Assembly (NCBI GenBank): GCA_018260615.1
Contig: JAGWDQ010000111.1
Location: forward strand, 1-29,095
DNA length: 29,095 nucleotides
Direction of reading: 5' to 3'
DNA from: Candidatus Altarchaeum sp.
GTDB lineage: Archaea > Altiarchaeota > Altiarchaeia > Altiarchaeales > Altiarchaeaceae
Part shown: positions 10,931 to 28,683 of the stretch, piece by piece
How the letters are laid out: each line of letters begins with the position of its first letter
Numbering within the stretch: the first letter of the stretch is position 1
Position numbers and translations under genes: made by a program
Notes under the pieces: generated by a model
Told to the model about the DNA's origin: nothing
What the model saw: only the letters and a program-made list of their open reading frames with translations
The model's database searches: none

Positions 10931-11000
10931 AACAAATTAAATTTAAATAAAATTAATTACTAATAATAAATTTAAAACAATTAAAAATCAAAAATTTAAA

Positions 11001-11237
11001 ATGTTTGGTTTGGGCTGGCAGGAATTATTAGTTGTATTGTTGATTCTTCTCTTGGTTTTTGGGGCGGCAAAACTTCCGGAATTAGCAAAATCATTGGGAA
11101 AAGCAAAAAAGGAATTTGAGAAAGGCATAAAAGGAGAAGAAGAAAATAAAGAAAAAGGAAAAGAAGAGTCCGGTAAGGAGACCTCTAAAAGTGCATCAGA
11201 GTCCGCAAAAAAGGATGCACCTAAATTTGAAAATTAA
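11001..11237 (+). CDS. tatA: Twin-arginine translocase subunit TatA
   Basis: [42 protein letters not shown] is the canonical TatA N-terminus. Confidence 0.96.
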
Positions 11238-11258
11238 TAAAACTGACACTATTGCAGG

Positions 11259-12086
11259 ATGGATGAAAAGGCAGAAAATGCAGAAAAAAAAGAGCCAATA
11301 TGGAATCATTTGCAGGAACTTTTGAACCGTCTCAAAATAATTCTTGTATCAATCATTCTTGTTTCTGTTTTTGTTATGCTTATTCCGTCTTCCTTTTTTC
11401 CGTTTTTTGATGACAATAATTTAAATTTAACCCAAAATATTTCAAATAATGAGACAAACAATTATTTATATGACACATTTACTTCCTCTTTGTTAAAAAA
11501 GATAGAAAAAGACATTCTTCCAGATGGTGTTTCGCTGATTGCCGGCTCGTGGACAAGTTTGCTTGAGGTTTATTTTTTGCTTTCCATCGCAATCGCCATT
11601 GTTCTTTGCTTTCCCATAATTGTGTATGAAATTTATAAATTTTTAGAACCGGCACTTTATAAAAGAGAGAGAAATTTATTTATAAAATTTTTTGTTGCTT
11701 CCATATTACTCTTTATTTTTGGAATTGCTCTGGCATACTTATTAATTTTACCCATAACCTTTAAAATCCTTATGTTTTTTGTCAATATGCTCGGAGTTCT
11801 GCCTTTAATATCCATTGATAATTTTGTTTTTTTGGTTGTGGCAATGCTTTTGGGAACCGGATTCGTTTTTACAAGCCCTGTACTCTTGTATTTTTTAATA
11901 AAAACAAAAATTTTAAATTATAACTCAATTGCATCAAGAAGAAAATATGTTTATGCTGCACTCCTGATAGTAATAATGATACTGACACCTGACCCGACAA
12001 TCGTGACAGATGTTATACTGATAGTACCTCTTATTGTCCTGTTTGAAATAGCATTGTATATTGGAAAAAGAGGTGCTGATTTTTAA
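11259..12086 (+). CDS. tatC: Twin-arginine translocase subunit TatC
   Basis: HLQELLNRL, EIYKFLEPALY, TPDP motifs; six-TM pattern; follows tatA. Confidence 0.95.
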   Translation: MDEKAENAEKKEPIWNHLQELLNRLKIILVSIILVSVFVMLIPSSFFPFFDDNNLNLTQNISNNETNNYLYDTFTSSLLKKIEKDILPDGVSLIAGSWTSLLEVYFLLSIAIAIVLCFPIIVYEIYKFLEPALYKRERNLFIKFFVASILLFIFGIALAYLLILPITFKILMFFVNMLGVLPLISIDNFVFLVVAMLLGTGFVFTSPVLLYFLIKTKILNYNSIASRRKYVYAALLIVIMILTPDPTIVTDVILIVPLIVLFEIALYIGKRGADF

Positions 12087-12120
12087 ATTTTGCCATACCT
12101 CAATATTTTAAGGGGAACTA

Positions 12121-12377
12121 TTATAATCCTTTGTAGATATTCCTTCTATGTCCGACAACTCTGACTTTCAGTATCGGATTTAAAAAATCCACATCTATTA
12201 AAGCTCTATAATCACCTATTCTAAGTTTGTAAACATCCCCTCCTTCATAATGTTCAAGGTAATGAAAAGGGTCATCTTTCATTCTTTAACTTTCTTAATA
12301 ATCCTTGCTGATACATTTACGGGCAATTTTCTTAGATGCTCTCTAACATTTGGATCCCAATTTACATAGTAACTCAT
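12121..12377 (-). pseudogene. relE: RelE/ParE-family toxin, frameshifted by a 1-bp loss
   Basis: Manual translation: MSYYVNWDPNVREHLRKLPVNVSARIIKKVKE-stop (TGA 12281-12279); shifted frame continues MKDDPFHYLEHYEGGDVYKLRIGDYRALIDVD...KVRVVGHRRNIYKGL; span 257 bp = 86 codons minus 1 base. Confidence 0.85.
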
Positions 12378-13335: not shown

Positions 13336-16254
13336 TTAAATAAATTTTACATTTGCCATCCTTCTGACAATTGTCGGGTCAGCAATCTTTCGCGGCTTCC
13401 AGTTATTACATTTTAAAATTTCCTTTATCTCATCAGACATCGCCATAGGAATATCCCCTTCCACCCGTATAAATTTATCCAAATCATCCGGAAACGTATA
13501 TTTTCCCTTTCCTCCGTATTTTCTGTAAATATCAATATAATGTGACAATTTAATACTTCTTCCTTTTGTATTGTCGCCCGGCCTTAATGTCAGCTTTGAA
13601 ATCAGGAGCATAACTTCTTCCTTTGTATTTGCAGCATAACTTAAATGTAGAGGAGCCGGCTCACTGTCAAAAATTTCCCCGTTTGCAGTATTATAACATT
13701 TCCACCTGTCAAGCAGTCCCAAATTTTTCCGCCCGTAGTCAAAAATTTCACTGTTATTTTCGTAAGGATTTTCAACATCTCCTCTTAAGTCCTTCCTGTA
13801 TTTTACTCCCTGCGGCCCCAATATTACCGGAATTCCTAACCGGTTCACTCCGTTTCCAATTGCTACTGCTTTTGCAGACATTGCCCCCCAGGCCAGACCG
13901 ACAGCTCCTACTCTGTTAAGTATGTAATCGGCGATTTCCTCAAAATTTGCCCTTAAATTTCTCTTTGCGAATATATTTGCTACTTTCATTGCCGCTCCCG
14001 TAATGTGGGAATTTGCAACGCAGGAACCGACATTGACTATATTTCCCGGTCCGAAATTTCCCCTGTATTTTTCAAACAGATTATGCGTCCCGGAATAATC
14101 ACTTGCCGCCGCCATTGCAGAACATCCGCTGACTACAACGATAAAATTTCTCTTTATAAATTCCTCCAAAATTTCACCTAATTCCTTACCTCCATTGGGC
14201 CATATTGAACATCCGACAGCAGCAAGAATACCCGGAATCTCTCCGAAAACAATTGGCTGCCCGACATTTCTTATTTCAACATCCTGTATTGCTCCTCTTC
14301 CGGGAGAAATTTTTGCTTTATCGTTTGCCAGCTGGTCTTTATAAATTTCGGTAAATACGGATACTATGGGAATATTCCCGGGACACCACGATTCGCATCT
14401 TCCGCAGAATATACATTTTCCAAGTGATTCCAGAATTTCTTCTTTTGTTAAAAATTTAATGTCTGCAATTATATTTCTTCTTTCTCTTTCAACCCTGACA
14501 ACTTCTCTGATATTTATTTTTTTCGGACACTTTTTTTGACATAATCCGCACATTGCACAATCTTTCAGGATGGAAATTTCCTTTGCACCAATTTCTTTTC
14601 CTTCTTTAATTGCAGATATTAAATCAGAAATTTGAATATCGTTCGGACAATTTTTATTGCAAAGTTTGCATTCAATACAACTTTTTACCTCTTCGGTTAT
14701 TTTGTAATATTCATTCAGGCCTTTAATTAAAGAGTAATATGTTTCTTTTCCAATATTCCTTTTAGTTAATTCCGAACTTTTTTCATTTGAAATTTTTTGT
14801 AAAACATTGTATATGTATTGTCTTGAACAGCCAACTTCTTTTGCCAGCGCGGTTACAGTGTATTCCTTTTGTTTCAGTAAATTTATTATTTTATCTGCTA
14901 CAATATGCTCTTTATCTTTATGAACCGTGTTTTCTGTCTCTTTGTTTCCGGTTACTTCTTCACTTGTTTTACATTCCTCTGCCTTATTGAAAATTTGGTT
15001 TATGCTTTGAATGATTAGGTGGTTATCAACACCAACTGGACACGCCTTTTTACATAATCCGCAGTTAATACAATCGTTTGTTTTTTTTATTGCTCCTTCG
15101 TATAAATTTAAATTTTCTGTTTTTTCATTTTGCACATTTTTCTTTCTTTCCTTAATCTTCATAGCAACCTGGACAGCAACCTCTCCCAACTTTTCAAGGT
15201 CATGCAAATAACATCCCGGAATTTCCCCGCTCATTAATTTTTCAATAATTTCCTCGCTATTTTCGCCGCTTAAATCCTCTAATCCGGAAACATATTTATC
15301 GGTAGTAGCAATTAAAGGCGTTTTTAATTTCTTTAAATTTTCCAGCAGGTCAACTCTTATACATTGCTCATCGCTGATAACAACATCTGCAATTCCGGAT
15401 CTTATGTAGGGAAGCTGATAAGATAAAGGACCGACAATTTTTGCCCCTGTTCTGTATCTTCCCAAATCAAGTGCGGTGCAGCATATCCCGCAAATTTCAA
15501 CATCTTTATTATTTGCTTCCGCATAATCAATGGCAGAGGCACCTGCAAGAACATTGTGACCGACACATAGAATTATTGGTTTTTCTTTATTTACACTTCC
15601 GAAACCAAATTCGGCTAATTTCGGATTTGGCTCTCCTTTTGGAAAATTTAAGGCGGCAATCTGTGCCAGATCACAAATTTCCATTCCGACATGGTCAAGC
15701 ATTCCCGCATGTAATGCCTTGCTGTTGTAATCAAAGTCAGATGACTCTGTTCCGACATTAAGGCAGGAAGCAAGTTTTGTTATTTGCTCTTCAAAATAAT
15801 TTATTCCTCTCTCAAGGTCACCGATTGTTTCCGGCTTATATCCGCATACAAGCTGAATATTAGGCGCTCTTACTTCGGTATTTTCGGCTGTGTCCAATGG
15901 AAAATTTCTTCCGAATTTTTCTATCAGTGCGTGTACTAAATGCCTTCCGTGTGCAGCATGTGCCGATGCTCCGGTTATTGCTAATTGCAGTCCTTCCCTT
16001 GCTAAATGTCTTTCTAATGTAATGCCGCATGCTCCTTTCCTGTTGTCTGATAAATCGCAGAGACCTAAAGCACAAAACTGGCACTGCCGGATAAAACCGT
16101 AATATTCAGGTTTATATCTGTTCAGCAATTTCAAATCCCAGTCCCGCAAATCGGCAATATCCGGATTTGGTGTTGGTCCTTCCAACTCATTGTATTCTCT
16201 TTCCTCTTCAACCTCTCCGATTGAAATTTTTAAATTTTTGGTTTTGATTGTCAT
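13336..16254 (-). CDS. cdhA: ACDS-type CO dehydrogenase alpha subunit (apparently catalytic copy) with 4 ferredoxin motifs and an internal winged HTH
   Basis: AHAAHGRH, C-cluster ligand motifs VGHN, GICCT, DEQC, VGCS, SGCS, GSCV and conserved Lys (MSAKA); B-cluster CQFCALGLC...GAC; motifs CINCGLC, CIECKLC, CAMCGLC, CIFCGRC. Confidence 0.95.
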   Translation of the reverse strand: MTIKTKNLKISIGEVEEEREYNELEGPTPNPDIADLRDWDLKLLNRYKPEYYGFIRQCQFCALGLCDLSDNRKGACGITLERHLAREGLQLAITGASAHAAHGRHLVHALIEKFGRNFPLDTAENTEVRAPNIQLVCGYKPETIGDLERGINYFEEQITKLASCLNVGTESSDFDYNSKALHAGMLDHVGMEICDLAQIAALNFPKGEPNPKLAEFGFGSVNKEKPIILCVGHNVLAGASAIDYAEANNKDVEICGICCTALDLGRYRTGAKIVGPLSYQLPYIRSGIADVVISDEQCIRVDLLENLKKLKTPLIATTDKYVSGLEDLSGENSEEIIEKLMSGEIPGCYLHDLEKLGEVAVQVAMKIKERKKNVQNEKTENLNLYEGAIKKTNDCINCGLCKKACPVGVDNHLIIQSINQIFNKAEECKTSEEVTGNKETENTVHKDKEHIVADKIINLLKQKEYTVTALAKEVGCSRQYIYNVLQKISNEKSSELTKRNIGKETYYSLIKGLNEYYKITEEVKSCIECKLCNKNCPNDIQISDLISAIKEGKEIGAKEISILKDCAMCGLCQKKCPKKINIREVVRVERERRNIIADIKFLTKEEILESLGKCIFCGRCESWCPGNIPIVSVFTEIYKDQLANDKAKISPGRGAIQDVEIRNVGQPIVFGEIPGILAAVGCSIWPNGGKELGEILEEFIKRNFIVVVSGCSAMAAASDYSGTHNLFEKYRGNFGPGNIVNVGSCVANSHITGAAMKVANIFAKRNLRANFEEIADYILNRVGAVGLAWGAMSAKAVAIGNGVNRLGIPVILGPQGVKYRKDLRGDVENPYENNSEIFDYGRKNLGLLDRWKCYNTANGEIFDSEPAPLHLSYAANTKEEVMLLISKLTLRPGDNTKGRSIKLSHYIDIYRKYGGKGKYTFPDDLDKFIRVEGDIPMAMSDEIKEILKCNNWKPRKIADPTIVRRMANVKFI

Positions 16255-16268
16255 TTTATCCTAATTTT

Positions 16269-16856
16269 TCATTTACTTTTTACTTTGGATTTTTTCAATT
16301 CTTTTAATGTCTCATTACAGAGTCCTACCATATCCGGCATTTTCTGTCTTTGAAATAACTCTTTTGATTCTAAAATTTTTTGTTCTCCCTGAGCAAATTC
16401 GCATGTCAATTCATAAGCACGGGCAAAATTAAAATTTAATTTCGCCATTTCATAATCATCTAAAAGTTCCCGGGCATTCCATTCCTCATTAAGCCATTTT
16501 AATGCGTTATGGCCATCCTCAACATTTAAATATAACTCGGCAAGTTTTGCAGCAGGGTACAAACCTTTATCCCCTGCTTCATCTCTCATATTCCATAAAA
16601 ATTCATAAAGGGCTTTCAATACATTAAATGCATATTCTAATTCATCTTCTGACAAATTTCCTTTGAGTTCAAGTGCAATTACAAGTTCTGTCATTCCGTC
16701 TCCGAGTTTTTTAGCATCATTCTGTCCCACGAGTAAATTTCCCAAATTATAATGTGCTTTAGCGTCAATCGGATTTTTCAGTATTGCCTTTCTGAGTTCC
16801 TTCTCTGTTTCTTCAATCTCCTCTGTTGAAAGCAAATTTTTGCTTTTGGTTGCCAT
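16269..16856 (-). CDS. TPR-repeat protein
   Basis: AILKNPIDAKAHYNLGNLL and NFNFARAYEL TPR-type helices; ends 14 bp before cdhA. Confidence 0.75.
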   Translation of the reverse strand: MATKSKNLLSTEEIEETEKELRKAILKNPIDAKAHYNLGNLLVGQNDAKKLGDGMTELVIALELKGNLSEDELEYAFNVLKALYEFLWNMRDEAGDKGLYPAAKLAELYLNVEDGHNALKWLNEEWNARELLDDYEMAKLNFNFARAYELTCEFAQGEQKILESKELFQRQKMPDMVGLCNETLKELKKSKVKSK

Positions 16857-16942
16857 TTTTTATATTAATTATTTCGTTATTTATTCAGTTATCTTAAATT
16901 TTTGGTTTTTTAGCATTGTTTTGAGTATGTGAAAATAAAAAA

Positions 16943-19900
16943 TTAAATTTGTTCATCAGTAACAATCTTATCAATTAAAGCAAAGACATCAAAGAAATTT
17001 ATATCATCATCGTTATTCAAATTATAATATGATTTGCAGTAAGTTAAATTTTCTAAATTTTTCTGTCCGCTTAAATATTCAAGCATTTCAACTGCATCAA
17101 AGATGTCGGTTGCTTTACCAAATTTGTAGTAGCCCACAGGCACTGTACCTGGACAATTTGTAGCATTCTCGTCACATAGAGGTGTTGTTATTCTTGTCAA
17201 ATTAAATAATGTCTTTTCTAAAGAATGCTTGTTACAGCACATATCCCAAACGGCAAACTGGAATGTTATGTTGCAGGATGTGATGTTGTATTTGTCGTTT
17301 ATTTTATCCGGAACAGCAAAAGGAGCTAACTGATTGTCAAATCTCTTGTTCATATCCTTGTCACTAAGCAATGATGATGACCTTAACTGTGCGCATCCCT
17401 CACATTGAACATTCCATCCGGATATAGTAACATTTGTGTTTGTATCGTTGTTGTAATATGTGCAGTTAGCGAATACAAATATTCTGACAAATTCAATGTT
17501 TGAATCGTTTGCATTTAAAGCAACATAAGCACTATCTCCCAGTTTTAAGGTTTCATTTCCGGTTGCATAATTTCTTATAATTACAGAGGTATTATCTACT
17601 GCCGGCGGAATTGTATCACCTATTGTTATAGTTCCTAAAAATTCTTCATTCGCTGTTTCATTTTCAACCTTTACATTAATCTCATAGGTATTTGAATGCC
17701 ATTCTTTTGTTATTTCATCTCCTTTAAATTTGGATAATGAACTGAGTTTTATGCTGCACTTCTGAGATGTTGAGTTTATAATGTTGATGCAGGCAACATT
17801 CTCATTTGTAGTTATATTTTCAAGCGTTATTTCTTCTCCTGAATAGTCCTTTACTGTTATCTTTGAGATATTTGTTATAGAAGTTGTTACATTTATATAA
17901 GGTGATGGCAGATTGTATCTGGAGTAGTCCCTTACAATTGTGCTATACATGAAGTTATTATTTGTTGCACTATTTATCCAGCATGCTCCGTATATCTGAT
18001 CCGTCTCTTCGTTATTTCCATAATACAACTCATTACCATCTACTTTACTTTCTCCATAAGTGGAACTTGTGAAATTATTTGTATATTTCCTTATAAATAA
18101 GTCGCTATCGGTTATAAAGGTAATATATTTGTTATTTCCGTATGCAACGATATTAGGTAATGTTGCTGCCGGAATTCCCTGACCGCCTTTTTTATCTATA
18201 ACTTCAACAGTGGCATTGCTGCTCCCTGTTGCAGAATTCAGATTAAGATCATATTTATCAATAAATATTTTGTTTTCTGTTTTATTTACCAACATATACA
18301 ACCATATTGACTGACTATTAGCATCCTTGAAGTTAGATTCCCACTCCCTTCTTGTTGTTTCCGGAAGTTTCTTATTTACCTGATAGGCCAAATTAATCGT
18401 ATTGCCACCACATAAGATAGATGGTGATTCGGCACTAAATGCTCCAGTGAAATTTGTGATGTTCTTATCTTCTAAAAATCCAAGAGTGGAATTATATGTT
18501 TTTACATAGATATCATCAGAGAACCAATATGCAACATATACCTTATCATTACAGACAGTTACTACTGGCATATCTGTTCCAACACCTATGGAAGCTTTTG
18601 CCACCTCGTTAAAATTATTGTCATATTTTGCTACATATACCCCTCCTATTGCATCCGACTCGTTTGAAACATAAGTCAAATACCAACCATAAGTAGCATC
18701 TCTATATAAGTATGGTTTGTATGATTTTACATTGGCATTTGATAATCCACTAATCAAATATTTAATTGATGTTTTGGCAGTAAAATTATATGTCTTGACA
18801 TATACTTTTGGAATGTCATTCTGCCATTCTGCATAAGCAGTATAATAAAGTCCATTATAATTAACTACTGACCTTGCTTCCCTCCAAGCTCCTGGAGCTT
18901 CGTCTGTTACATTCTCTCCGGTAATGCCTGCTATATCAGTAAGATTTAAAGAACTCTTAAAGAATACTGTGGAAAACAAGTCATTTCTTTGTCCGTTATC
19001 CGCTGCATAACCCGAACCCAATGCGTCAAAACATCGCCCTTCACCACAGAACGATACACTTTGAGGATACACCTGACCATACCTGACAGACATTGATTTT
19101 GATGCCATAGTGCCGCATGAATCAGTTACATTAACCCTTATGACATAAGCACTTAAATTTTCCGAGCTAAACATTGCCGTATACTTCTTTTCACCTGTCA
19201 TGTTAATAGTTACGCTGACATTTAATGTCTGGTTGTTTTCGTTTAAAATTTCAACAGTTGGTATATTGGGGATATTGTTTTCTGATGTTACAACGATGTT
19301 TGCAGACATATTATTTCCTTCAAGCAACTGTGTTGAGATTGAAATTACAGGAACCTTTGTAACTACTGCAAACATTCCATTTATATCCGGATATTTATTT
19401 CCGAATTTATCGGCAATGCCGGAAATTTCATAAGAATAATTTCCCGTATCTGCATTTTGAATGTCTATTTTTCTGATGCAGTCCTTATCACAATCCATTG
19501 AAAAGGTCTGTATAGTTCCATCGGGATACATTAAATCTAAATTTGCATTTGTCAGGTTTGCTGTTGCAGAGACCTTAATTTCCCGTGTGGTGTTTCCGCC
19601 GCATATTTTTGTAACTTCCGCACTGTAACTTGGTTTCGCCTCTTTGGTCAAATAAATTTTTCCCGCATATACCGGGCATCCCGATGCTGCACTTACATTT
19701 ATAAGTTCCGAATAATTCTTTTGCATATCTAACGAGCCACCGGATAAAGATGCTGCTAAATTGTAACTTCCATAAGGCACTAACATTTCAAAATATCCGT
19801 CTTTACCTATGGTTATCGTATTTGGCCTGCTTGTTAAGGAAACCGCACTGCTTCCTAACCCTCCTGTGTAATTAGTATACTCCGCAACGACGGCTGACCC

Positions 19901-20446
19901 GTTAATCCCCATATTTATATTTTCTAAATCTTTTACATATCCGTATATAACAGTTGCATTTGTAACACCGATGCAATCCGGTTTTTGTCTTACTGCTGTG
20001 TATGCCTCTGAAATGGCAAGAGTACATATGCCTTCAGGAATTTCTAAATTTAGTTCTATAGCAGTATAATTATCAGATGATATGTTAATCGTATAATTTC
20101 CGGGATTTTGAACATTAAAGGAATATACACCATCGCTGCCTGTGATTATTGTTGCTATCACAGTGCCGTTATCAATTATCGTAACATTTGCCCCTGCAAC
20201 AGGATTTCCATTTTGTACAACCTTTCCTGTTATATTGGTCGTATTACATGCTTCACCTCCCAAATTATCATAAGCAAAAACATTCCCGCTTGCCAAAAAA
20301 ACCAAAACAACCCCCAAAACAACCAAAACAAAAATACCCAAATTTTTTAAATTTAAATTTCCAAAATACTCTTTACCTCTGTTTAAATTTTCCTCTCCTA
20401 AACCATGTCTAAATGGATTAGTATGCAATACCTTTATTATATTCAT
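16943..20446 (-). CDS. Secreted multidomain surface protein with C-terminal dockerin-like domain
   Basis: Signal-like hydrophobic segment ending VFA at about aa 58; carboxypeptidase-regulatory-like module; repeated (V/I/L)(Y/F)(V/I)xxY strands; many N-x-S/T sequons; dockerin-like DIFDAVEMLEYLSG...LNNDDDINFFDVFALID. Confidence 0.8.
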   Translation of the reverse strand: MNIIKVLHTNPFRHGLGEENLNRGKEYFGNLNLKNLGIFVLVVLGVVLVFLASGNVFAYDNLGGEACNTTNITGKVVQNGNPVAGANVTIIDNGTVIATIITGSDGVYSFNVQNPGNYTINISSDNYTAIELNLEIPEGICTLAISEAYTAVRQKPDCIGVTNATVIYGYVKDLENINMGINGSAVVAEYTNYTGGLGSSAVSLTSRPNTITIGKDGYFEMLVPYGSYNLAASLSGGSLDMQKNYSELINVSAASGCPVYAGKIYLTKEAKPSYSAEVTKICGGNTTREIKVSATANLTNANLDLMYPDGTIQTFSMDCDKDCIRKIDIQNADTGNYSYEISGIADKFGNKYPDINGMFAVVTKVPVISISTQLLEGNNMSANIVVTSENNIPNIPTVEILNENNQTLNVSVTINMTGEKKYTAMFSSENLSAYVIRVNVTDSCGTMASKSMSVRYGQVYPQSVSFCGEGRCFDALGSGYAADNGQRNDLFSTVFFKSSLNLTDIAGITGENVTDEAPGAWREARSVVNYNGLYYTAYAEWQNDIPKVYVKTYNFTAKTSIKYLISGLSNANVKSYKPYLYRDATYGWYLTYVSNESDAIGGVYVAKYDNNFNEVAKASIGVGTDMPVVTVCNDKVYVAYWFSDDIYVKTYNSTLGFLEDKNITNFTGAFSAESPSILCGGNTINLAYQVNKKLPETTRREWESNFKDANSQSIWLYMLVNKTENKIFIDKYDLNLNSATGSSNATVEVIDKKGGQGIPAATLPNIVAYGNNKYITFITDSDLFIRKYTNNFTSSTYGESKVDGNELYYGNNEETDQIYGACWINSATNNNFMYSTIVRDYSRYNLPSPYINVTTSITNISKITVKDYSGEEITLENITTNENVACINIINSTSQKCSIKLSSLSKFKGDEITKEWHSNTYEINVKVENETANEEFLGTITIGDTIPPAVDNTSVIIRNYATGNETLKLGDSAYVALNANDSNIEFVRIFVFANCTYYNNDTNTNVTISGWNVQCEGCAQLRSSSLLSDKDMNKRFDNQLAPFAVPDKINDKYNITSCNITFQFAVWDMCCNKHSLEKTLFNLTRITTPLCDENATNCPGTVPVGYYKFGKATDIFDAVEMLEYLSGQKNLENLTYCKSYYNLNNDDDINFFDVFALIDKIVTDEQI

Positions 20447-20584
20447 CTTTTTGTATTTTAAAATTTTTTAATATGATTCTTTTTATTTTAAATATTAGTC
20501 ACGCCCTTAATTTTATCTTTATATTTTTCAGGAATTTCTTTATTTTTTACGGTTATATGTTATGTCTGAAAACATTAACCATAG

Positions 20585-20938
20585 TTATTCATCAAAAAAC
20601 TTTAGCATTTTCTCAATATTTGCTTTTGTTTCGGGTATATTCAGGGTTATAATTTCCCAAACGATACTCAAATCAACGCCAAAGTATTCGTGAATTACAA
20701 TATTTCTCAAGCCAATCATTCTCTTCCATGGAATTTCAGGATATTTTTCTTTAATTTCCTCAGGAATGTTCCTTGATGCTTCGCCAATAATCTCAAGATT
20801 TCTTATAACTGCGTCTACAATTAACCCGTTTTCAGAGAATTCTTCATAATTTAAGCCCCCGGTGTAATTCTCAATTTTATTAATCGCTTCCAATATATCA
20901 TCAATAAAAAATTTACATGTCTTTTTCATCTTTTTCAC
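20585..20938 (-). CDS. HEPN-domain RNase toxin (DUF86/HepT-like)
   Basis: RNIVIHEY matches RX4HXY; VIRNLEIIGEA and PEIPW motifs; overlaps the nucleotidyltransferase stop. Confidence 0.92.
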   Translation of the reverse strand: MKKMKKTCKFFIDDILEAINKIENYTGGLNYEEFSENGLIVDAVIRNLEIIGEASRNIPEEIKEKYPEIPWKRMIGLRNIVIHEYFGVDLSIVWEIITLNIPETKANIEKMLKFFDE

Positions 20939-21273
20939 ACATAAACAACATCCTTTAAAATATTATCCTTTAATTGTGGCTTTAAAGCCCTGATTGTAAC
21001 TAAGTCAACATCTTTTTTAATAAGTTCTTCCAAAAATTCCTTTAAATCAATAAATTCCCACCCGACAGGCTCATAAAACTCAACCAACAGATCAACATCG
21101 CTATTTTTGGATTCTTCTCCCCTTGCATAAGAGCCAAAAATTCCTATGTTTTTAACCTTAAATTTCTCCTTTAATAACTGCTTATACTTTTTTAATTTTT
21201 CCTCTATTTCAAAGCTTGCCTTTGAAATATCCGAAGGAACTGGGGTTATTTCCCCGTATGTTTTTGTTTCCAT
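20935..21273 (-). CDS. Minimal nucleotidyltransferase (MNT/MntA-like) antitoxin
   Basis: GSYARGEESKNSDVD matches GSX10DXD; directly upstream of the HEPN gene. Confidence 0.92.
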   Translation of the reverse strand: METKTYGEITPVPSDISKASFEIEEKLKKYKQLLKEKFKVKNIGIFGSYARGEESKNSDVDLLVEFYEPVGWEFIDLKEFLEELIKKDVDLVTIRALKPQLKDNILKDVVYV

Positions 21274-21361
21274 GACATAAGATTCAGATTTTTAAATAAA
21301 ATTTTATTGATTATTTGATGTAAATGAAATCGCTCAAAATTTATATTTTTTGACCAAAAAA

Positions 21362-21792
21362 TCAATATTCTGTCTCGCTTGCCTCAAGCCCCAGTTCAGT
21401 GATAAACTGTTTTGGAGTCATGTATTCTTCAAAATTTTCAAAATGCCAGTCATAAGCAATCAAATACTTTAGTTCAAGGTATTTAACAGTTGCCAGGTGT
21501 TCTAAGTCCTTATCTTTAATTTTTCCCCCCAGCTTTTTAATTCTTTTATAATTTTCTCCCTGGGGATGACTTCCACAACCGAAGTAATATGTCTAAAGAC
21601 AGATGACCATACATCCTTTGAGTAATATGTTATGAAGTATCTCCTTAATTCATCAATGACTTTTTCTGATATCATGACTTGTATCTCACCGTCATTCATG
21701 AGTCGGAGTATTTTTCCGGAGTTGGAATCCGGTTTGTTGTAGCCCCAGATAAATACGCTGGAATCCAAAAAGACAATTTTACTCATTTTCAT
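21362..21792 (-). pseudogene. PIN-domain (VapC-like) toxin, frameshifted at a G6 tract
   Basis: VFLDSSVF and VIDEL motifs; one extra G at 21525-21530 restores GKIKDKDLEHLATVKYLELKYLIAYDWHFENFEEYMTPKQFITELGLEASETEY-stop; span 431 bp = 144 codons minus 1 base. Confidence 0.85.
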
Positions 21793-21801
21793 ACTATAGC
21801 A

Positions 21802-22503
21802 TCACAAATTCTCTATCTGTTTTGCTATTTCATCATCAGTATATTTTTTACCACTTGCTTTGATTTTCTTGTGTACCTCCTTGTGCAGTGTTTTTGGAGA
21901 TATTATTCCGAGACGGGCCCCATAAGAGATTAGAGACGCCCTTATCTTATAGCGTCAAAATGCCGTTGGAATTATGGCATAATTCTGGGAGACATGTGCA
22001 ATATATGTCCATAATCCATCCCTATATAGTGATAATAATTTTAAATCATTTTGTCCGAGTATAAAATAATTCATAACAAGACAGTGCCTCACTAATAAAA
22101 ATTAGTTTCAAATTTTACGGAATAATGTAAAATGTAATTAGATTTTGATATAAAAATATTAATATTTCATGATTATCAGTTATTTTAATATTTGATGAAA
22201 ATAAACATTACCATTTATATGTTCATTTTATATAAATGTGGTAATAATTAATTTGGTTAATTTTTTTAATTTGGCCGATACTCATGTATTGCATATTTAA
22301 AAGGATATTTATGTTAATCAAAATAGATATTTATTGGCGTTTCCATCATTTTGACGGATGCCGCTGTTTTACATCCAACGGAGTTTTGGCGCTATAGCCC
22401 TTATCAAATCTTCTTTAGACACGGAATACCCTCTGTCGATCAGTTCATTTACTATTGCCGCTAAGTCACTTGTAAGTTTCACATTTAAATTTATTTCCCG
22501 CAT
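21802..22503 (-). pseudogene. Ribbon-helix-helix antitoxin split by a 450-bp MITE
   Basis: Removing 21947-22396 and one 9-bp duplication gives an open 80-aa ORF MREINLNVKLTSDLAAIVNELIDRGYSVSKEDLIRASLISYGARLGIISPKTLHKEVHKKIKASGKKYTDDEIAKQIENL. Confidence 0.88.
21947..22396. mobile_element. Non-autonomous IS derivative (MITE), 450 bp
   Basis: 22-bp imperfect TIRs (21948-21969 and 22375-22396, 19/22 match); flanking direct repeat GCCCTTATC at 21938-21946 and 22397-22405; no transposase ORF inside. Confidence 0.88.
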
Positions 22504-22534
22504 TTTGTATTTAATTATTGTTTTTATATATTAA

Positions 22535-22760
22535 TAATTAAAAATCAAAACAAATTAATTTATAGGGGTGATTTATTTTTGCAGACATTTTTTATACTCC
22601 TCCGGAATATCTTTTTCACTTCTCACAAAATTTTTTATATCATCCGGAATTTCTTTCGTTTTATCAGCCGCATATTTCCTCTAAATTTCAATATAATCTG
22701 CTATCTTTTTTGCTCTTGCCTCTTCGCTGTCAAAATTTCTGAAAACTAATTTCGGAATTA
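22535..22760 (-). pseudogene. Duplicated 3' end of the second cdhA paralogue plus 30 bp of its downstream sequence
   Basis: 22571-22760 aligns without gaps to 23887-24076 (175/190 identical, one TAC>TAG stop); 22535-22564 identical to 23728-23757. Confidence 0.92.
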
Positions 22761-22863
22761 TATAGAACGCAAAATTAAATTTGGCATATTTTTTCCCATT
22801 GTTGCTTTATTTACAAAGGTAAATAACTTTATATTTACTAACTTTATTATTGCGTTCTATATA
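22759..22863. mobile_element. About 100-bp MITE-like element with 14-bp perfect inverted ends that include outer TA
   Basis: TATATAGAACGCAA (22759-22772) / TTGCGTTCTATATA (22850-22863); TA-flanked ends are typical of IS630-family derivatives. Confidence 0.6.
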
Positions 22864-22970
22864 GTAAACAAAGAGTGGTGAAATTTTTTTGAAATTTTAC
22901 AGGTAAGTTTTGTTAACATCCTGATCACCAATGTGTTAATAACTTGGACTGCATCTACTCTACAGTTACA

Positions 22971-23438
22971 TCATAATCTGTTTCCATATTCACTTAAAAA
23001 TTCTTTCGCACTTAAAATTTTAAATTCATCGACCTTTATTCCTTTAAGAAAATGCCTGTTTTCCGATATTAATATTGACTTTGTCCATTCAGCAAATGCA
23101 GCAATTGATGCATCTGCCTCTTTTAATCCCTTTGATTTATATTTTTCTATTAATGATAATGGAATATTTAATGTCTCTATAACTTCTATGTTATCTGCTT
23201 TTAAAATTAAATCTCTCACTCTTGATGCAAAGTCCTTGTTTGTTTCAATCTTTATGTTTTCAAAGACCTCATCCAAAATGAGTGTCGGAATAATAATATT
23301 AATTTTTTTCTTTCTGCACAAATTAATTACAATAATACATTCATTCTTTGTTTTCAAAAAACCAAAAATAAATTCATTACTGTCCAATACCAGTCGCGTG
23401 TTCATATTTTTTGGCATATTTTTTTCTCCATAATTCAT
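22971..23438 (-). CDS. PIN-domain (VapC-like) toxin, intact; true start may be a few codons downstream
   Basis: LVLDSNEF, ILDEV, EADASI, ISENRHF acidic PIN motifs. Confidence 0.85.
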   Translation of the reverse strand: MNYGEKNMPKNMNTRLVLDSNEFIFGFLKTKNECIIVINLCRKKKINIIIPTLILDEVFENIKIETNKDFASRVRDLILKADNIEVIETLNIPLSLIEKYKSKGLKEADASIAAFAEWTKSILISENRHFLKGIKVDEFKILSAKEFLSEYGNRL

Positions 23439-23685
23439 CTCTAACTTTTTTCATCTGATTCGCAAGTTCTTTTTCTGTTTTCCTACTCTTTGGAATTTCT
23501 CCAACTAGTGATTCAAATTCCATGAGCCATACATCAGTTGTCTGTTCTTTAAATTCTATAAATCTCCTTATAGCATCCTTATAAAATTCCTCTCTGTTTT
23601 TGTATTCCTCTAATTCAATAAAAAATTCTGCACGGGATGCCATTTTTTTTGGTAAATGTATTAATATATTGTTTGACATTTTCAT
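23377..23685 (-). CDS. Putative RHH-type antitoxin paired with the PIN gene
   Basis: N-terminal ILIHLPKKM strand then helices (NREEFYKDAIRRF); overlaps the PIN start. Confidence 0.7.
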   Translation of the reverse strand: MKMSNNILIHLPKKMASRAEFFIELEEYKNREEFYKDAIRRFIEFKEQTTDVWLMEFESLVGEIPKSRKTEKELANQMKKVRDELWRKKYAKKYEHATGIGQ

Positions 23686-23757
23686 AAATCTTATATTTAA
23701 TAATTGTTCTTATTTGTTAGTGGTTAGTAATTAAAAATCAAAACAAATTAATTTATA

Positions 23758-23886
23758 ACCTTAACTCCTCAAAAATTTAGTTATACTATTTTAAAACTTG
23801 TTTTAAAATCTCCGAACGATATCAAAAATACTTGAAGCATTTTTGAATATCCCAAAAATCTTATAGATTTTTGCGATAGTGAGGTC
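23758..23886 (-). repeat. Inverted copy of the modular palindromic element immediately after the cdhA-2 stop
   Basis: Reverse complement of 23839-23880 matches 5681-5722 at 40/42; carries the ACCTCACT and CGTTCGGAGATTTT linkers. Confidence 0.85.
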
Positions 23887-23888
23887 AT

Positions 23889-26510
23889 TTATTTTTCTAT
23901 GCTGTTTTTATACTCCTCCGGAATATCTTTTTCACTTCTCACAAAATTTTTTACATCATCGGGAATTTCTTTCGTTTTATCAGCCGCATATTTCCTGTAA
24001 ATTTCAATATAATCTGCTATTTTCTTTGCCCTTGCCTCTTCGCTGTCAAAATTTCTAAAAACCAGTTTCGGAATTAATAACATCGCTTCCTCTTTTGTCT
24101 TTGCTGCAATACATAAATGCGGAAATGCAAAATTTTTTGGCGAAATTTTCTTAATGACTTCATTATAATTTCCGTTATAATCATCTTTGCTGTAATCAAC
24201 AACTATGTCTCCCCTGAGTTCCCTTCTGTATTTTATACCCTGCTGCCCGAATATTACCGGAATTCCCAGCCGCATCAATCCCTGTGCAACTGCAAAATTT
24301 CCCTGCGTTGTTGCCCCCCAAAACATTGCAGCAAGACCAACTTTGTTTGCGATGTGAGCTGCAATTTCGTCAAAATTTCCAACAGGGCTTTTGTTGTTCT
24401 TTTTACCTGCCATTTCTATTATCTTTTCAATTAAATGAATGCCTGCTGATGCCGAACCCAGATTTATTAAATTTTCATGTTTTAAATTGCTCTCTACAAT
24501 TGAAATCGCCGCATCTCCCGCTGTAAATACTATAAAATTTCTGTTTAAAAATTCCTCTAAAATTTCTGCTAATTCCTTTGCTCCGTTCGGAAAATTTGCG
24601 TCGCCTAAAACCAAAAGAACCTGCGCATCTTCGGAAATTGATATATCCCGGGAAAGTGTAATTGCTCCCTTTTTATTCATAAATTTTTCCTTACCTATTT
24701 CGGCAAATACAGATACGATGGGAATTTGTTTCGGACATTGTGATTCGCACCTTCCGCAGAATATACATTTTTCAAGGGCATTCAAAATTTCTTCTTTTGT
24801 TAAAAATTTAATGTCTGCAATTATATTTCTTCTTTCTCTTTCAACCCTTACAATTTCTTTGATGTTTATTTTTTTCGGACACTTTTCCTGACATAATCCG
24901 CACATTGCACATTTCTTTAAGATGGAAATTTCCCGTGCTTTTATTTCTTTTCCTTCTTTTATTGCCACTATTAAATCAGCGATTTGAATATTATTCGGAC
25001 AGTTTTCGGTACAGTTTCCGCATTCGGTACATTCTTTTATTTGCCCGGTTATTTTGTAATATTCGTTCAGTCCTTTAATTAAAGAGTAATATGTTTCTTT
25101 TCCAACATTCCTCTTTGTTAATTCGTTTCCTTTTTCCTTTGAAATTTTCTGTAAAACATTGTATATGTACTGCCTTGAACAGCCAATTTCTTTTGCTAAT
25201 GTTGTTGGTGTGCCTTCCTTTTGCTTCAGTAAATTTATTATCTTGTCTTTATTTTTAAGGATATTTTCAGTTGCTTTATTTTCGGCATTATCTTTTTGTT
25301 CCGCATTTGACAATTTCAAATTGAAAATCCGGTTTATACTCTGAATGATTAGACGATTATCAACATTAACAGGACATGCCTTTTTGCATAATCCGCAGTT
25401 AATACATTCACCCGTTCTTTTTATTAATTCGCTATCTGTATAATCTACAGCGGGATTTTTTAAATTTCTGTCTTTTTTATTCACAACAGCAAGCATTTCA
25501 ACAACCTCTGCCAGTTTCCCGCCGTCTTTTATGTAACATCCTGAAATTTCTCTGCTCATTAACTTTTTAAAAATTTCAACCGCACTTAAATTGCTCAAAT
25601 CTGCAAGACCTGCCAAATTTCTGTTTGAGGTCGCAATTACAGGAATTCCGTATTTCTTTGCTTTTTCAACTACATCTGTTCTGACATTTCCTTCGCCGAG
25701 CACAACAACATCCGCAATTTTTAAAGTTGTATCTAACGCAAAATTTCCTTCTGTTTTCACCCGAAAGTCATATTCGCCCGAACCAAGACGGATAATTTCA
25801 AAATTTGCATTTGAATTAATGATTTGAGCAATATTAGGAACACAATCTCCAATAATTAACATACATGCTTTGCTTTGAGCAACCGCACCAAATCCAATCT
25901 CAAATTTGTTCATATTACTGCCTTTATTATTGTTTAAAAATTTCCTTAAAATTTCATAAATTTCCATTCCAAGCAAAGATACCATTCCTGCATGAAAAAT
26001 TTTGCTGTTAAAGTCAAAATCACTCGCTTCCTGTCCCATGTGTGTTGCCGAAATCAAATGAACTATTTGCTCATTCGCATATCTTAATGCCTTCTTTAAA
26101 TCACCCGTTGTTTTCGGTTCATATCCGCACAAAAGGTTTATAAATGCGGTTAAATTTTTGTCTTCTAAATTTAACTCTGCAACATAAGTGTGTTCCTTAA
26201 TTATTGCATCATTTAGTTCGCATACTCTCGCAATATAAGATGAGGCACCGGCAATTGCAGTAACTAATGCCTCTCTTGCCATCTGCACACTTAACCGCAT
26301 TCCGCACGCCCCCATCCTGTTTTTTGACAAATCGCACGGACCAAAAGCACAGTATTGACACTGCTGAATGAATGCATAATACTTTGGTTTAAATCTTCCA
26401 AGTAAATTTGCATCCCAGTTTCTCAAGTCCGTTACATTTGGATTTATAAATTTTCCCGTTCTTTCCAGTTCTTCTCCGCCTTTAATTAAAATTTCCGGTT
26501 TTTCTTCCAT
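23889..26510 (-). CDS. CdhA paralogue lacking all C-cluster ligands; keeps B-cluster, 4 ferredoxin motifs and winged HTH
   Basis: Colinear with cdhA, but GHN>GDC, GICCT>RLGSG, EQC>EGN, VGCS>LGDA, SGCS>AGDA, GSCV>GSAS, HAAHGRH>YIARVCE; intact 873-aa ORF. Confidence 0.9.
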   Translation of the reverse strand: MEEKPEILIKGGEELERTGKFINPNVTDLRNWDANLLGRFKPKYYAFIQQCQYCAFGPCDLSKNRMGACGMRLSVQMAREALVTAIAGASSYIARVCELNDAIIKEHTYVAELNLEDKNLTAFINLLCGYEPKTTGDLKKALRYANEQIVHLISATHMGQEASDFDFNSKIFHAGMVSLLGMEIYEILRKFLNNNKGSNMNKFEIGFGAVAQSKACMLIIGDCVPNIAQIINSNANFEIIRLGSGEYDFRVKTEGNFALDTTLKIADVVVLGEGNVRTDVVEKAKKYGIPVIATSNRNLAGLADLSNLSAVEIFKKLMSREISGCYIKDGGKLAEVVEMLAVVNKKDRNLKNPAVDYTDSELIKRTGECINCGLCKKACPVNVDNRLIIQSINRIFNLKLSNAEQKDNAENKATENILKNKDKIINLLKQKEGTPTTLAKEIGCSRQYIYNVLQKISKEKGNELTKRNVGKETYYSLIKGLNEYYKITGQIKECTECGNCTENCPNNIQIADLIVAIKEGKEIKAREISILKKCAMCGLCQEKCPKKINIKEIVRVERERRNIIADIKFLTKEEILNALEKCIFCGRCESQCPKQIPIVSVFAEIGKEKFMNKKGAITLSRDISISEDAQVLLVLGDANFPNGAKELAEILEEFLNRNFIVFTAGDAAISIVESNLKHENLINLGSASAGIHLIEKIIEMAGKKNNKSPVGNFDEIAAHIANKVGLAAMFWGATTQGNFAVAQGLMRLGIPVIFGQQGIKYRRELRGDIVVDYSKDDYNGNYNEVIKKISPKNFAFPHLCIAAKTKEEAMLLIPKLVFRNFDSEEARAKKIADYIEIYRKYAADKTKEIPDDVKNFVRSEKDIPEEYKNSIEK

Positions 26511-26764: not shown

Positions 26765-27235
26765 TTAAGTTAAAATTTCTTCCGCCTTTCTTTTATATTC
26801 CTCTGCCTTTTCAGGACTTTTCATTTTTTTGTAAGTTTCTCTCATGTTTTTATAAAGTATTTTAAGAGCATCTGTTTGTCCGATTTCAGCAAAAATTTTC
26901 TCTGCCTTTTCATAATATTCTGCTGCTTTATTATAGTTTTTAAGATCGTGATTAATAAGCCCCAAATACATATAACATGCGGATAATTTTTTTGTATCTC
27001 CCTCTTCAAGGTATGTAAGTCCGTGTTCCAGGCATACTAATGCCAATCGCAAATTAGACTGGTTCTCAAACATTATTCCTAAAAATAAAAATAATTCCTC
27101 TTTCTCTTTCCTTGAAACCTGCAATTTTTCTACGACATCTATAAATTGAGCAGGTGTTTCTTTATATTTTTCCGATATCTTCAAAATCTCCAAAACCATT
27201 TTTTCTGTTTCCAAAAATGATGTGCTTGTATCCAT
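26765..27235 (-). CDS. TPR-repeat protein
   Basis: SACYMYLGLINHDLKNYNKAAEYYEKAEKI and LYKNMRETYKKMKSPEKAEEYKRKA TPR helices. Confidence 0.8.
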   Translation of the reverse strand: MDTSTSFLETEKMVLEILKISEKYKETPAQFIDVVEKLQVSRKEKEELFLFLGIMFENQSNLRLALVCLEHGLTYLEEGDTKKLSACYMYLGLINHDLKNYNKAAEYYEKAEKIFAEIGQTDALKILYKNMRETYKKMKSPEKAEEYKRKAEEILT

Positions 27236-27288: not shown

Positions 27289-28683
27289 TTACTTTGTCTT
27301 CACATCCAGCCCTCCTCCGGTCCAGTTTTTCCGTAAAAAATCACCCAATCCCCCGGAGTCCTGCGGACCAACTAAAATTTCCCATTTTGTCGCGTCCTCT
27401 ATTGCTCCTTTTATTCTTCCGACATATCCCGGAACAACAAGTTTTCTGTGCTTCACTAAATTTTCAACCTTGCTGTTATCCATCGCTTCCTTTATTTTAT
27501 CCGCTGTTAATTTTCCGCCCGCAAGAGCAACGAGAACAGCTAATCCCTCCGTATCCATGACAAGCAGCCAGCAGGAAATTTTTGCACTTTCAACATCCCC
27601 CGCAACGGCAAAATATGTCAGGGCAAAATTTGAAGTTATCAATACGGGAGAATTTTCATCCGGTGTTCCAATCGCATACATTTTTGGCTCTGTTGTCGGA
27701 TTTACTCTCGGGTCAGCATAAACATTCATCCTCAAGGTCAGTGTTTCCATAACGCTGTAAATTTCATTAAAGTGAAATGCAATCAGGCCGACAAATCTGT
27801 CCAAACACAAAGAAATTGACAATGCCTCAAAAACCGCTGATGTTTCGCCTAAATTTAAATTTTTTAATCCGACCGTTGAAATCATTACGGGAAAAGAAAA
27901 TTCCTTAACATCCTTTATCGCCGCCTTTCTTAAAATTTCAAGTTTGTTAATAACGGAAGATAAATTTTCAAAGTCAAATCCGGGGTCAATAACAATATCG
28001 GTAAATCCTGCATTCATGAGGGTTTTTGTCATTGAGCCGATTTCATCCAGATTTTCCGAATGAACAGCCAGAGGACAATTGTATTTTCTTGCTAATTCAG
28101 ACATCTCTTTAAAATTTTCCTTTGTTGCCGCATAAATCAAAGGCCTTCTGTCTTTTGTTATTTCAAGGGCGGCATCCATAATTTCCGGATTTAGGGTGCA
28201 CAACATTATGAATTTGTCAAAATTCTGGCAAACCGTATTTACCGTCTTTAAAAATTGAGCCTTGTCGTTTGTCGCACATCGTAAACAAATTCCGTCTAAC
28301 CGTAAAATTTTTCCGACTCTTTCATACCTGTAATTTTTGACAAAGTCAATACGGTTTTTAATGGTATTTTCATCCATCGCGTCGCTAATGTCAAGCACCA
28401 TTGCCGCCGGATTGAAAAATTTAAGGTCGTGCCTGTACATCACTTCTTCTCCGCCAATAGTAATTGCCTGCTCATCTTTTCCGATTACAACTTCCCGGAC
28501 GGGAGGAGTTATAACTTCTCTTAATTTTTTTAGTTTGTCTCCTTTTAACTGCACACAGTGTTCTGCCTTTACTCCTCTTTCCATTAATTTCATGGCGAAT
28601 GCCATACATGTTTTCTCGGTGCATTCTCCGCAATTTGTTTTCGGGAGTAATTTATAAAGCTGTAACGCACTTAATCTTGCCAT
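27289..28683 (-). CDS. cdhE: Corrinoid iron-sulfur protein large subunit (ACDS gamma, CdhE/AcsC)
   Basis: YKLLPKTNCGECTEKTCMAFA Fe-S domain; SPVLITSNFALTYFAVAGD, DTEGLAVL, ILVGPQDS motifs. Confidence 0.96.
   Translation of the reverse strand: MARLSALQLYKLLPKTNCGECTEKTCMAFAMKLMERGVKAEHCVQLKGDKLKKLREVITPPVREVVIGKDEQAITIGGEEVMYRHDLKFFNPAAMVLDISDAMDENTIKNRIDFVKNYRYERVGKILRLDGICLRCATNDKAQFLKTVNTVCQNFDKFIMLCTLNPEIMDAALEITKDRRPLIYAATKENFKEMSELARKYNCPLAVHSENLDEIGSMTKTLMNAGFTDIVIDPGFDFENLSSVINKLEILRKAAIKDVKEFSFPVMISTVGLKNLNLGETSAVFEALSISLCLDRFVGLIAFHFNEIYSVMETLTLRMNVYADPRVNPTTEPKMYAIGTPDENSPVLITSNFALTYFAVAGDVESAKISCWLLVMDTEGLAVLVALAGGKLTADKIKEAMDNSKVENLVKHRKLVVPGYVGRIKGAIEDATKWEILVGPQDSGGLGDFLRKNWTGGGLDVKTK

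Follow-up and report, generated by a model that had tools for sequence, protein, structure and literature searches.

What could be the use of a carbon monoxide dehydrogenase (CODH) subunit that has lost its entire active site? This question is raised by a contig of 29,095 nucleotides from Candidatus Altarchaeum sp. (JAGWDQ010000111.1 of assembly GCA_018260615.1; this whole stretch is referred to below as the window), which carries two genes for CdhA, the alpha subunit of CODH/acetyl-CoA synthase (ACS). The product of one of these, cdhA1, has all ligands of the catalytic C-cluster, and the product of the other, cdhA2, has none. CODH/ACS is regarded as being among the oldest carbon-fixing machines, and Altiarchaeum is an uncultured subsurface archaeon to which much of the primary production in aquifers that are cold and anoxic is due. 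Our sequence comparisons identify CdhA2 as a conserved non-catalytic CdhA paralogue that is embedded in the cdh operon, and lead us to favour, tentatively, a role as the non-catalytic partner of CdhA1 in a heterodimer.

The genome that carries the window contig (G000; 2.2 Mb, 87% complete) contains only two genes matching PF03063, namely cdhA2 and cdhA1. The cdhE gene is located inside the window, cdhC and cdhD are found on other contigs, and no cdhB could be found in this genome. Six loci with paired cdhA genes were compared, i.e. those of the window, of three further genomes from the same genus (G001, G002 and G003), of contig CCXY01000063 of Candidatus Altiarchaeum hamiconexum, dating from 2014 (L093), and of a deeper-branching metagenome contig that carries protein P0014 (L092).

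An intact CdhA paralogue without a C-cluster site

The cdhA2 gene is an open reading frame (ORF) with a stop-free translation of 873 residues. Its product matches solved CdhA structures with E-values of 1e-77 to 1e-86 (best phmmer E-value against CdhA proteins in the PDB 1.8e-86), among them the archaeal 8riu, 9c0q and 3cf4 (1e-80 to 1e-86, over both its N-terminal and C-terminal halves), and is 48% identical to CdhA1. The AlphaFold2 model, with a predicted local distance difference test (pLDDT) score of 78.6 and a predicted template modelling (pTM) score of 0.76, was matched by Foldseek to the CdhA structures 9c0s, 8riu and 3cf4 with a TM score of 0.75, and in this model the CdhA fold is retained. 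On TIGR00314, for which the NCBIfam equivalog cut-off is 781.3 bits, CdhA2 scores 454.1 bits and thus falls below the cut-off, as opposed to 937.4 bits for CdhA1. A chance origin can be excluded, because the frame is open over 873 codons in DNA of 33% G+C and has orthologues with a ratio of non-synonymous to synonymous substitution rates (dN/dS) of about 0.25.

The ligand positions were read from an alignment of 71 CdhA sequences (the window copies and those of Altiarchaeota, methanogens and anaerobic methanotrophic archaea), with the motifs of the intact copy as a guide. The alignment includes sequences of the ligand-less clade to which CdhA2 belongs, called the dead clade below, and 62 other CdhA proteins. 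In CdhA2 the His and five Cys ligands of the C-cluster are replaced by Asp, Ser, Asn, Asp, Asp and Ala, respectively, the acid-base His by Arg and the conserved Lys by Gly. All eight residues are kept in 62 of the 62 other sequences wherever the site is covered. The original prediction, made from the letters of the window alone, had stated that the His, the five Cys, the proton-relay His and the Lys were all replaced, and this holds at every site that it named. It was also correct in describing an open frame of 873 residues with a B-cluster and four complete ferredoxin motifs. The B-cluster Cys residues of CdhA2 have the spacing C51-x2-C-x4-C-x9-C69 (C51, C54, C59 and C69), and all four are present in every member of the dead clade. 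The positions of the D-cluster Cys are occupied by Ile and Gln in CdhA2, and likewise in CdhA1, so neither window copy has a D-cluster. CdhA2 can best be described as a pseudoenzyme, from which the cofactor-binding and catalytic residues have gone and which is maintained by purifying selection across species.

CdhA1 is a member of structural group A-5 as defined by Inoue et al. (2019), which lacks the D-cluster Cys and has E and F clusters with two extra Cys-x4 motifs between them, and which is archaeal and linked to ACS genes (PMC6344411). CdhA2 derives from this group.

Origin and conservation of cdhA2

Database and genome searches identified orthologues of cdhA2 in four of the four Altiarchaeum genomes (window genome and G001-G003) and on two metagenome contigs; further proteins of the clade came from metagenomes (P0002-P0006, P0012, P0014, P0056 and P0059). 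Among 61 Altiarchaeota genomes searched, the dead copy is confined to one genus-level group, to which two metagenome lineages can be added. A profile of the dead clade, run against 1.84 billion representative proteins, retrieved three to four representatives of the clade itself and a single unrelated ligand-less sequence, P0068, which is discussed below.

In a tree based on core columns the dead clade is monophyletic with 100% support and branches off beside the intact copy from that genus. Its stem measures 1.2–1.4 substitutions per site, and the crown branches are short. A long stem and a short crown in this position indicate one duplication, followed by one burst of change and then stasis. 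Pairwise dN/dS of the four genomic cdhA2 orthologues is 0.22–0.27 (bootstrap range 0.19–0.37) at unsaturated dS values of 0.4–0.8, and the intact cdhA1 genes give values of 0.10–0.16. The frames are open in all cdhA2 orthologues. These data show that cdhA2 arose by duplication of an Altiarchaeal cdhA of the A-5 type, then lost the whole C-cluster site and was kept by purifying selection thereafter.

A decaying pseudogene that is still open by chance would account for the loss of every catalytic residue, and for a dN/dS about twice that of CdhA1. We give this explanation next to no chance, and consider decay ruled out as far as sequences can tell, since all orthologous frames are open, dN/dS is 0.25 with an upper bootstrap value of 0.37, and both the replacement residues and the synteny are conserved over lineages that have diverged up to a dS of 0.8. 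The distribution and dN/dS of the gene, intact in relatives and far from a ratio of 1, together with the monophyly of the clade, its fixed replacements, the operon position and the retained fold, bear out the suggestion that cdhA2 was selected for a new role.

Nine clade sequences share their replacement residues. Fixed in the clade are Arg for the acid-base His, Asn for the second Cys and Asp for the third and fourth Cys, and the Lys has mostly become Glu. Other positions vary, i.e. the former C-cluster His (Asp, Glu, Lys or Asn) and the former fifth Cys (Ala, Leu, Thr or Lys). One could imagine a new enzyme, in which the invariant Asp, Asp, Asn, Glu and Arg form a catalytic or metal-binding site that is not of the iron-sulfur (Fe-S) type, as the replacements are non-random and clade-fixed, with carboxylates at two former Cys positions. 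However, Arg, Glu and the two Asp would be explained equally well as a salt-bridge network filling the empty cluster cavity, there is free variation at the sites of the lost His and fifth Cys, and no known motif was matched. The Cys in the GDCV sequence of CdhA2, which had been put forward as a possible alternative metal ligand, is not conserved either: the orthologues have Tyr, Tyr, His, Thr or Phe at this position, and the suggestion has to be abandoned. A new metal site is, in our view, very unlikely.

Operon context

The gene order in G003, L093 and L092 is (RACo)-cdhD-cdhE-dead copy-live cdhA. The dead and live cdhA genes are separated by 8 bp in L093, 15 bp in G003, 33 bp in L092 and 358 bp in G001. 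In six of the six loci the dead copy is accompanied by a live cdhA, which it immediately precedes on the same strand, inserted blocks aside. A tight operon cdhD-cdhE-dead copy-live cdhA is the ancestral arrangement. In the window a block of genes is found between cdhA2 and cdhA1 (Table 1), and the same kind of block parts the two genes in G002 (L039:3532-9372); these inserted blocks span 6–7.6 kb.

The slot between cdhE and cdhA2, which holds a small TPR protein gene in the window, is variable. It contains a TIR-TPR gene in G001 (L038:7364-8245) and an ORF of 91 residues in G003 (L040:7680-7955), and L092 has no gene there. The slot resembles an insertion hotspot for cassettes within the cdh operon.

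The epsilon subunit CdhB (PF02552) was found in none of the 61 Altiarchaeota genomes, and none of the CdhA proteins of these genomes has the D-cluster Cys residues, which in methanogens are buried by the epsilon subunit. A role of CdhA2 as a substitute for the epsilon subunit was considered and rejected, since no CdhB was detected in any of these genomes and the dead copy is far more restricted.

Table 1. Features of the cdh locus in the window, with positions counted from the first nucleotide
Feature	Position	Strand	Evidence or remark
cdhA2 (P0001), intact CdhA paralogue of 873 residues without C-cluster site	23889..26510	-	alignment, AlphaFold2, Foldseek
B-cluster motif CQYCAFGPCDLSKNRMGAC, residues 51-69	26304..26360	-	alignment
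SSYIARVCEL, replacing proton-relay SAHAAHGRHL (HAAHGRH to SSYIARV); acid-base His is Arg throughout the clade	26214..26243	-	alignment
IIGDCVPN (IGHNV to IGDCV); C-cluster His to Asp; adjacent Cys confined to this genome, elsewhere Y/H/T/F	25833..25856	-	alignment
RLGSGEYD, replacing ICGICCTALD (CC to GS); first Cys ligand to Ser	25767..25790	-	alignment
LGEGNVRTD, replacing SDEQCIRVD (DEQC to GEGN); second Cys ligand to Asn, clade-invariant	25674..25700	-	alignment
Fe-S/helix-turn-helix (HTH) module, residues 361-600	24711..25430	-	motifs, Pfam, comparison with CdhA1
Four complete Cx2Cx2Cx3CP motifs, residues 369, 494, 534 and 582	25371-25406, 24996-25031, 24876-24911, 24732-24767	-	
Putative HTH, residues 421-461	25128-25250	-	Pfam HTH_11 and predicted helices
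LVLGDANFPNG (GC to GD); third Cys ligand to Asp, clade-invariant	24582..24614	-	alignment
FTAGDAAIS (GC to GD); fourth Cys ligand to Asp, clade-invariant	24501..24527	-	alignment
NLGSASAGIH (GSC to GSA); fifth Cys ligand to Ala, A/L/T/K over the clade	24435..24464	-	alignment
WGATTQGNF; catalytic Lys to Gly, Glu in most orthologues	24294..24320	-	alignment
cdhA1, intact catalytic CdhA of 972 residues; ligand set complete, D-cluster absent, four ferredoxin motifs, HTH	13336..16254	-	TIGR00314, 937.4 bits
cdhE, corrinoid Fe-S protein large subunit, upstream of cdhA2	27289..28683	-	PF03599 and PF04060
Small TPR protein between cdhE and cdhA2	26765..27235	-	variable slot
7.6-kb block between cdhA2 and cdhA1	16269..23888	-	195-residue TPR-like protein, 1167-residue surface-type protein, HepT/MNT pair, PIN toxin-antitoxin
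Orphan second copy of the final ~65 codons of cdhA2, 86% amino acid identity, one TAG	22576..22770	-	behind PIN toxin-antitoxin pair

The Fe-S/HTH module

CdhA2 carries a module with four ferredoxin motifs and a putative helix-turn-helix (HTH). The Pfam family HTH_11 matches with an E-value of 6.5e-5 and 23.2 bits, slightly below the curated cut-off of 25, and AlphaFold2 predicts three helices in the segment of residues 419–458 (pLDDT about 65). The recognition segment is identical in CdhA2 and CdhA1. At the DNA level the modules of cdhA2 and cdhA1 are 73–93% identical, with a fully identical tract of 63 bp at 24786-24848, and dS between the paralogues is 0.65–1.1 for the module versus above 1.2 for the cores. 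This far greater likeness of the modules points to gene conversion. Where the module is present its dN/dS is 0.17–0.18 in both paralogues, i.e. it is under the same constraint in each.

The module is found in the cdhA2 of the window, G002, G003 and L093. In G001 a single ferredoxin motif is left, P0012 and P0014 (L092) have none, and the HTH is absent from all three. The live CdhA of G001 and L092, the short-form lineages in which the locus can be read, likewise lacks the HTH and the two extra clusters. Hence, the state of the module is concordant between the paralogues in six of six pairs, being present in both at four loci and lost from both at two. In G001 the borders of the deletion differ between the dead and the live gene. 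The module was thus lost twice in the clade, each time jointly from both paralogues, and only the B-cluster and the CODH fold are universal in the dead clade. The retained wHTH of the original prediction is only partly upheld: an HTH is probable in the window protein, where the HTH_11 match falls just short of the cut-off and three helices are predicted, but it is not a feature of the family, being absent from G001, P0012 and P0014. The same applies to the Fe-S wire and wHTH taken together as a defining feature, which is true of the window and false of the short forms.

These observations bear directly on the possibility that CdhA2 is a stand-alone regulator or redox sensor, i.e. a homodimer that senses redox state by its Fe-S clusters and binds DNA by its HTH. 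Such a homodimer might also share its operator with CdhA1, which bears an HTH too, and either rival or modulate that protein there. The strong constraint on the HTH and the four ferredoxin motifs in the window genome (module dN/dS of 0.17) and the recognition segment common to both paralogues are in line with such a role. There is also a precedent in the monocistronic CdhA3 of Methanosarcina acetivorans, for which a function as CO sensor has been proposed, as summarised in PMC4652020. On the other hand, the core is conserved in G001, P0012 and P0014/L092 despite the loss of the HTH and of most or all ferredoxin motifs, and in G001 and L092, where the locus was read, these short-form genes still lie upstream of cdhA. 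The conserved function of the family cannot, therefore, depend on the module. In addition, the loss of the C-cluster leaves no CO-binding site, and the Pfam match of the HTH is below its curated cut-off. A stand-alone regulator would suit the protein of the window, though not the short ones, and we consider it unlikely; as a conserved family function, the proposal of a regulator acting through wHTH and Fe-S wire fails on the two lineages that lost the module.

HTH insertions in CdhA extend beyond the A-5 module, as two other Altiarchaeota CdhA proteins (P0026 and P0027) have two ferredoxin motifs only and a TrmB-type HTH (PF01978). Furthermore, the CdhA1 proteins of G002 (L039:358-3516, approximately residues 440–530) and G003 (L040:1676-4924) have, after the first ferredoxin motif and before the HTH, an extra insertion of about 80–110 residues, which is absent from CdhA1 of the window and from all CdhA2. 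CdhA1 of L093, with 1067 residues, is similar in length to these two proteins.

Retained and eroded surfaces

In published structures (PMC11474084, PMC13370988) the B-cluster sits in the N-terminal helical domain, and ACS docks to a surface that Rossmann fold 2 shares with the C-terminal extension. When columns that are invariant in catalytic Altiarchaeal CdhA are considered, the dead clade keeps 62–69% of those in the N-terminal helical domain, 26–34% in Rossmann fold 1 and 28–35% in Rossmann fold 2. For the C-terminal domain the range is 23–65%, with 65% in the genus-level orthologues. The dead clade has also lost GRGxxxDxEIRxxGxP, an otherwise invariant segment, together with the C-terminal tail, and in P0012 and P0014 the entire C-terminal domain is missing.

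Another conceivable function is that of a non-catalytic scaffold in the complex of acetyl-CoA decarbonylase/synthase (ACDS), in which a CdhA2 homodimer would dock CdhC and/or the corrinoid protein without delivering CO. The position of the gene directly after cdhD-cdhE and the 65% of invariant C-terminal-domain columns kept in the genus-level orthologues would agree with this. However, Rossmann fold 2 is the most eroded part of the Altiarchaeal clade, in which the GRG...EIR segment and the C-terminal tail are missing as well (in P0012 and P0014 even the whole C-terminal domain), and a neighbouring live CdhA that keeps all docking surfaces is always present. A scaffold function of CdhA2 is decidedly unlikely for these reasons, even though a ligand-less CdhA from Dehalococcoidia, described below, provides a parallel.

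An independent ligand-less CdhA in Dehalococcoidia

The relatives of P0068 are found in Dehalococcoidia, where seven genomes have a ligand-less CdhA of 690–775 residues (L043-L046 and L052-L054). In this form the C-cluster ligands, the acid-base His, the Lys and the D-cluster Cys have all been replaced, and the B-cluster is intact. The tree places it as a clade of its own inside the catalytic bacterial CdhA proteins, which implies that the ligands were lost independently of the loss in Altiarchaeota. Its dN/dS is 0.07–0.13 where dS is usable, in agreement with purifying selection. At L053, the one locus of which the genes were scanned, the gene (10001-12295) occupies the alpha position in an operon MeTr-cdhD-cdhA-cdhC-cdhE, and the ORFs of L044 have the same sizes and order. 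No second CdhA was found in the five Dehalococcoidia genomes searched. The other PF03063 matches in these genomes are CODH of the CooS type elsewhere in G062 and G065 and a truncated extra match in G061; G063 and G064 have none.

The Dehalococcoidia form resembles CdhA2 in that it has lost the ligands, acid-base His and Lys, keeps the B-cluster, is under purifying selection and is part of a cdh operon. It differs in its independent origin, in its lost or incomplete E and F motifs, and in the fact that it replaces the alpha subunit, whereas CdhA2 accompanies one. Furthermore, it has retained 75–78% of the columns that are invariant in Rossmann fold 2 and in the C-terminal domain, compared to 28–35% and 23–65%, respectively, in the CdhA2 clade. 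This retention suggests a role as docking platform for ACS, and together with the position of the gene between cdhD and cdhC it is a parallel for a scaffold function of CdhA2. The comparison shows that ligand-less CdhA is recurrent, having arisen at least twice, in Altiarchaeota and in Dehalococcoidia, and that the two dead forms have kept different surfaces.

This form also illustrates a problem of annotation. The protein encoded at L053:10001-12295 scores 824.6 bits on TIGR00314, above the cut-off of 781.3, and standard annotation would call it a functional CODH/ACS alpha subunit. Since annotation pipelines may thus label ligand-less proteins as bona fide CdhA, metabolic reconstructions may credit CO2 reduction to genomes that are incapable of it by means of that gene.

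Proposed role of CdhA2

In CODH dimers each C-cluster lies beside the B-cluster of the partner chain and is served by it. A chain that is dead but keeps its B-cluster would therefore suit a single live chain. We propose that CdhA2 and CdhA1, whose gene lies immediately downstream in the ancestral arrangement, pair as an asymmetric CODH dimer of the alpha1/alpha2 type. The only live active site would draw on the N-terminal helical domain and the B-cluster of CdhA2, and the CdhA2 half of the dimer would neither produce CO nor dock ACS. In the long forms, including that of the window, both chains carry the same Fe-S/HTH module, presumably homogenised by gene conversion, and the two modules would act as a pair. 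We favour such a heterodimer because the gene pair is tight, in tandem and always found together, because the B-cluster domain has been retained while the catalytic and ACS-docking surfaces are eroded, and because the modules have been lost jointly from both paralogues. We estimate the probability of this reading at roughly 0.45.

Several observations weigh against it. First, retention of the B-cluster is not specific for a partner and by itself does not prove partner service, as the Dehalococcoidia pseudo-CdhA keeps its B-cluster in genomes where no second CdhA was found. The second option of the original prediction, a partner that supplies its B-cluster, is thus the one favoured by the evidence as a whole, but the argument that a B-cluster implies a partner has become weaker. 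Secondly, joint losses of the module would be equally expected from a shared regulatory circuit, and could also reflect gene conversion. Thirdly, cdhA2 and cdhA1 are 6–7.6 kb apart in the window genome and G002, so that their co-transcription is not assured there, and the 65% retention in the C-terminal domain of the genus-level orthologues may leave room for docking of ACS. Finally, a search for fused alpha2-alpha1 proteins found none, albeit that this is weak evidence.

A broader extension, in which the Wood-Ljungdahl CODH of Altiarchaeum is an obligate asymmetric alpha1/alpha2 dimer whose one live C-cluster gets its B-cluster from the dead paralogue, the matched modules form a redox-linked DNA-binding unit and dead alpha subunits are a recurrent but overlooked part of ACDS, is rather unlikely. 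To our knowledge, all solved Ni-CODHs are symmetric alpha2 dimers. If the proposed heterodimer exists, the tandem-encoded dead and live alpha subunits would form the first asymmetric CODH, and the stoichiometry, electron entry and ACS docking of these archaeal enzymes without D-cluster and epsilon subunit would have to be revised. Natural, nearly pure biofilms of Altiarchaeum make purification of the native CODH feasible.

Comparison with known systems

The cdhA2 gene itself is not new, since the 2014 deposit names it 'putative CO dehydrogenase/acetyl-CoA synthase subunit alpha 2', and the live gene 'subunit alpha 1'. In the open-access literature searched we found neither the ligand loss of 'alpha 2' described nor any ligand-less CdhA. 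The locus had been predicted to be an undescribed system; within this literature that holds for the ligand loss, but not for the gene, deposited in 2014, nor for the intact copy, which corresponds to the published group A-5. A survey of Ni-CODHs from 2026 removed all sequences with mutated C-cluster Cys (PMC13240472), a step that would hide proteins like CdhA2.

With group A-5 CdhA2 shares the absence of the D-cluster Cys and the presence of E and F clusters with two extra Cys-x4 motifs. The A-5 proteins have a complete set of C-cluster and acid-base residues, of which CdhA2 has retained none of eight. Inoue et al. (2019) list partial loss of ligands in groups A-4 and A-6, and no total loss in clade A (PMC6344411). 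Like CdhA2, the A-4 and A-6 proteins are of the CdhA type, have incomplete active-site signatures and occur in ACS gene clusters. They are, however, bacterial and have lost the His and first Cys (in addition to acid-base changes) but kept four Cys, whereas CdhA2 has lost every ligand.

The nearest functional precedents for CdhA2 are CODH-V and CdhA3. CODH-V (CooS-V) of Carboxydothermus hydrogenoformans, described by Jeoung et al. in 2022, does not interconvert CO and CO2, as summarised in PMC13240472, and in this respect is a non-interconverting protein with CODH fold, as CdhA2 would be judging from its sequence. CODH-V is of the CooS type and still binds a hybrid iron-oxo cluster through retained ligands, whereas at this site of CdhA2 every Cys and His has gone. 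The CdhA3 protein of M. acetivorans (Matschiavelli et al. 2012, as summarised in PMC4652020) is a monocistronic isoform with a proposed function as CO sensor. It is, like CdhA2, an extra CdhA isoform, for which a regulatory or sensing function rather than bulk catalysis has been proposed. CdhA3 stands alone as a transcription unit and would sense CO, whereas CdhA2 is linked in an operon to the catalytic copy and has no CO-binding cluster.

Outside the CODH family, paralogous hetero-oligomers with one degenerate subunit are well known from the alpha and beta subunits of F1-ATPase, the A and B subunits of V-ATPase and NifD and NifK of nitrogenase. For Ni-CODH no description of such a paralogous heterodimer was found in the open-access literature. 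In the ATPases and nitrogenase a subunit was duplicated, the genes are in tandem and the dead paralogue is essential for assembly; for CdhA1 and CdhA2, the pairing is what we infer.

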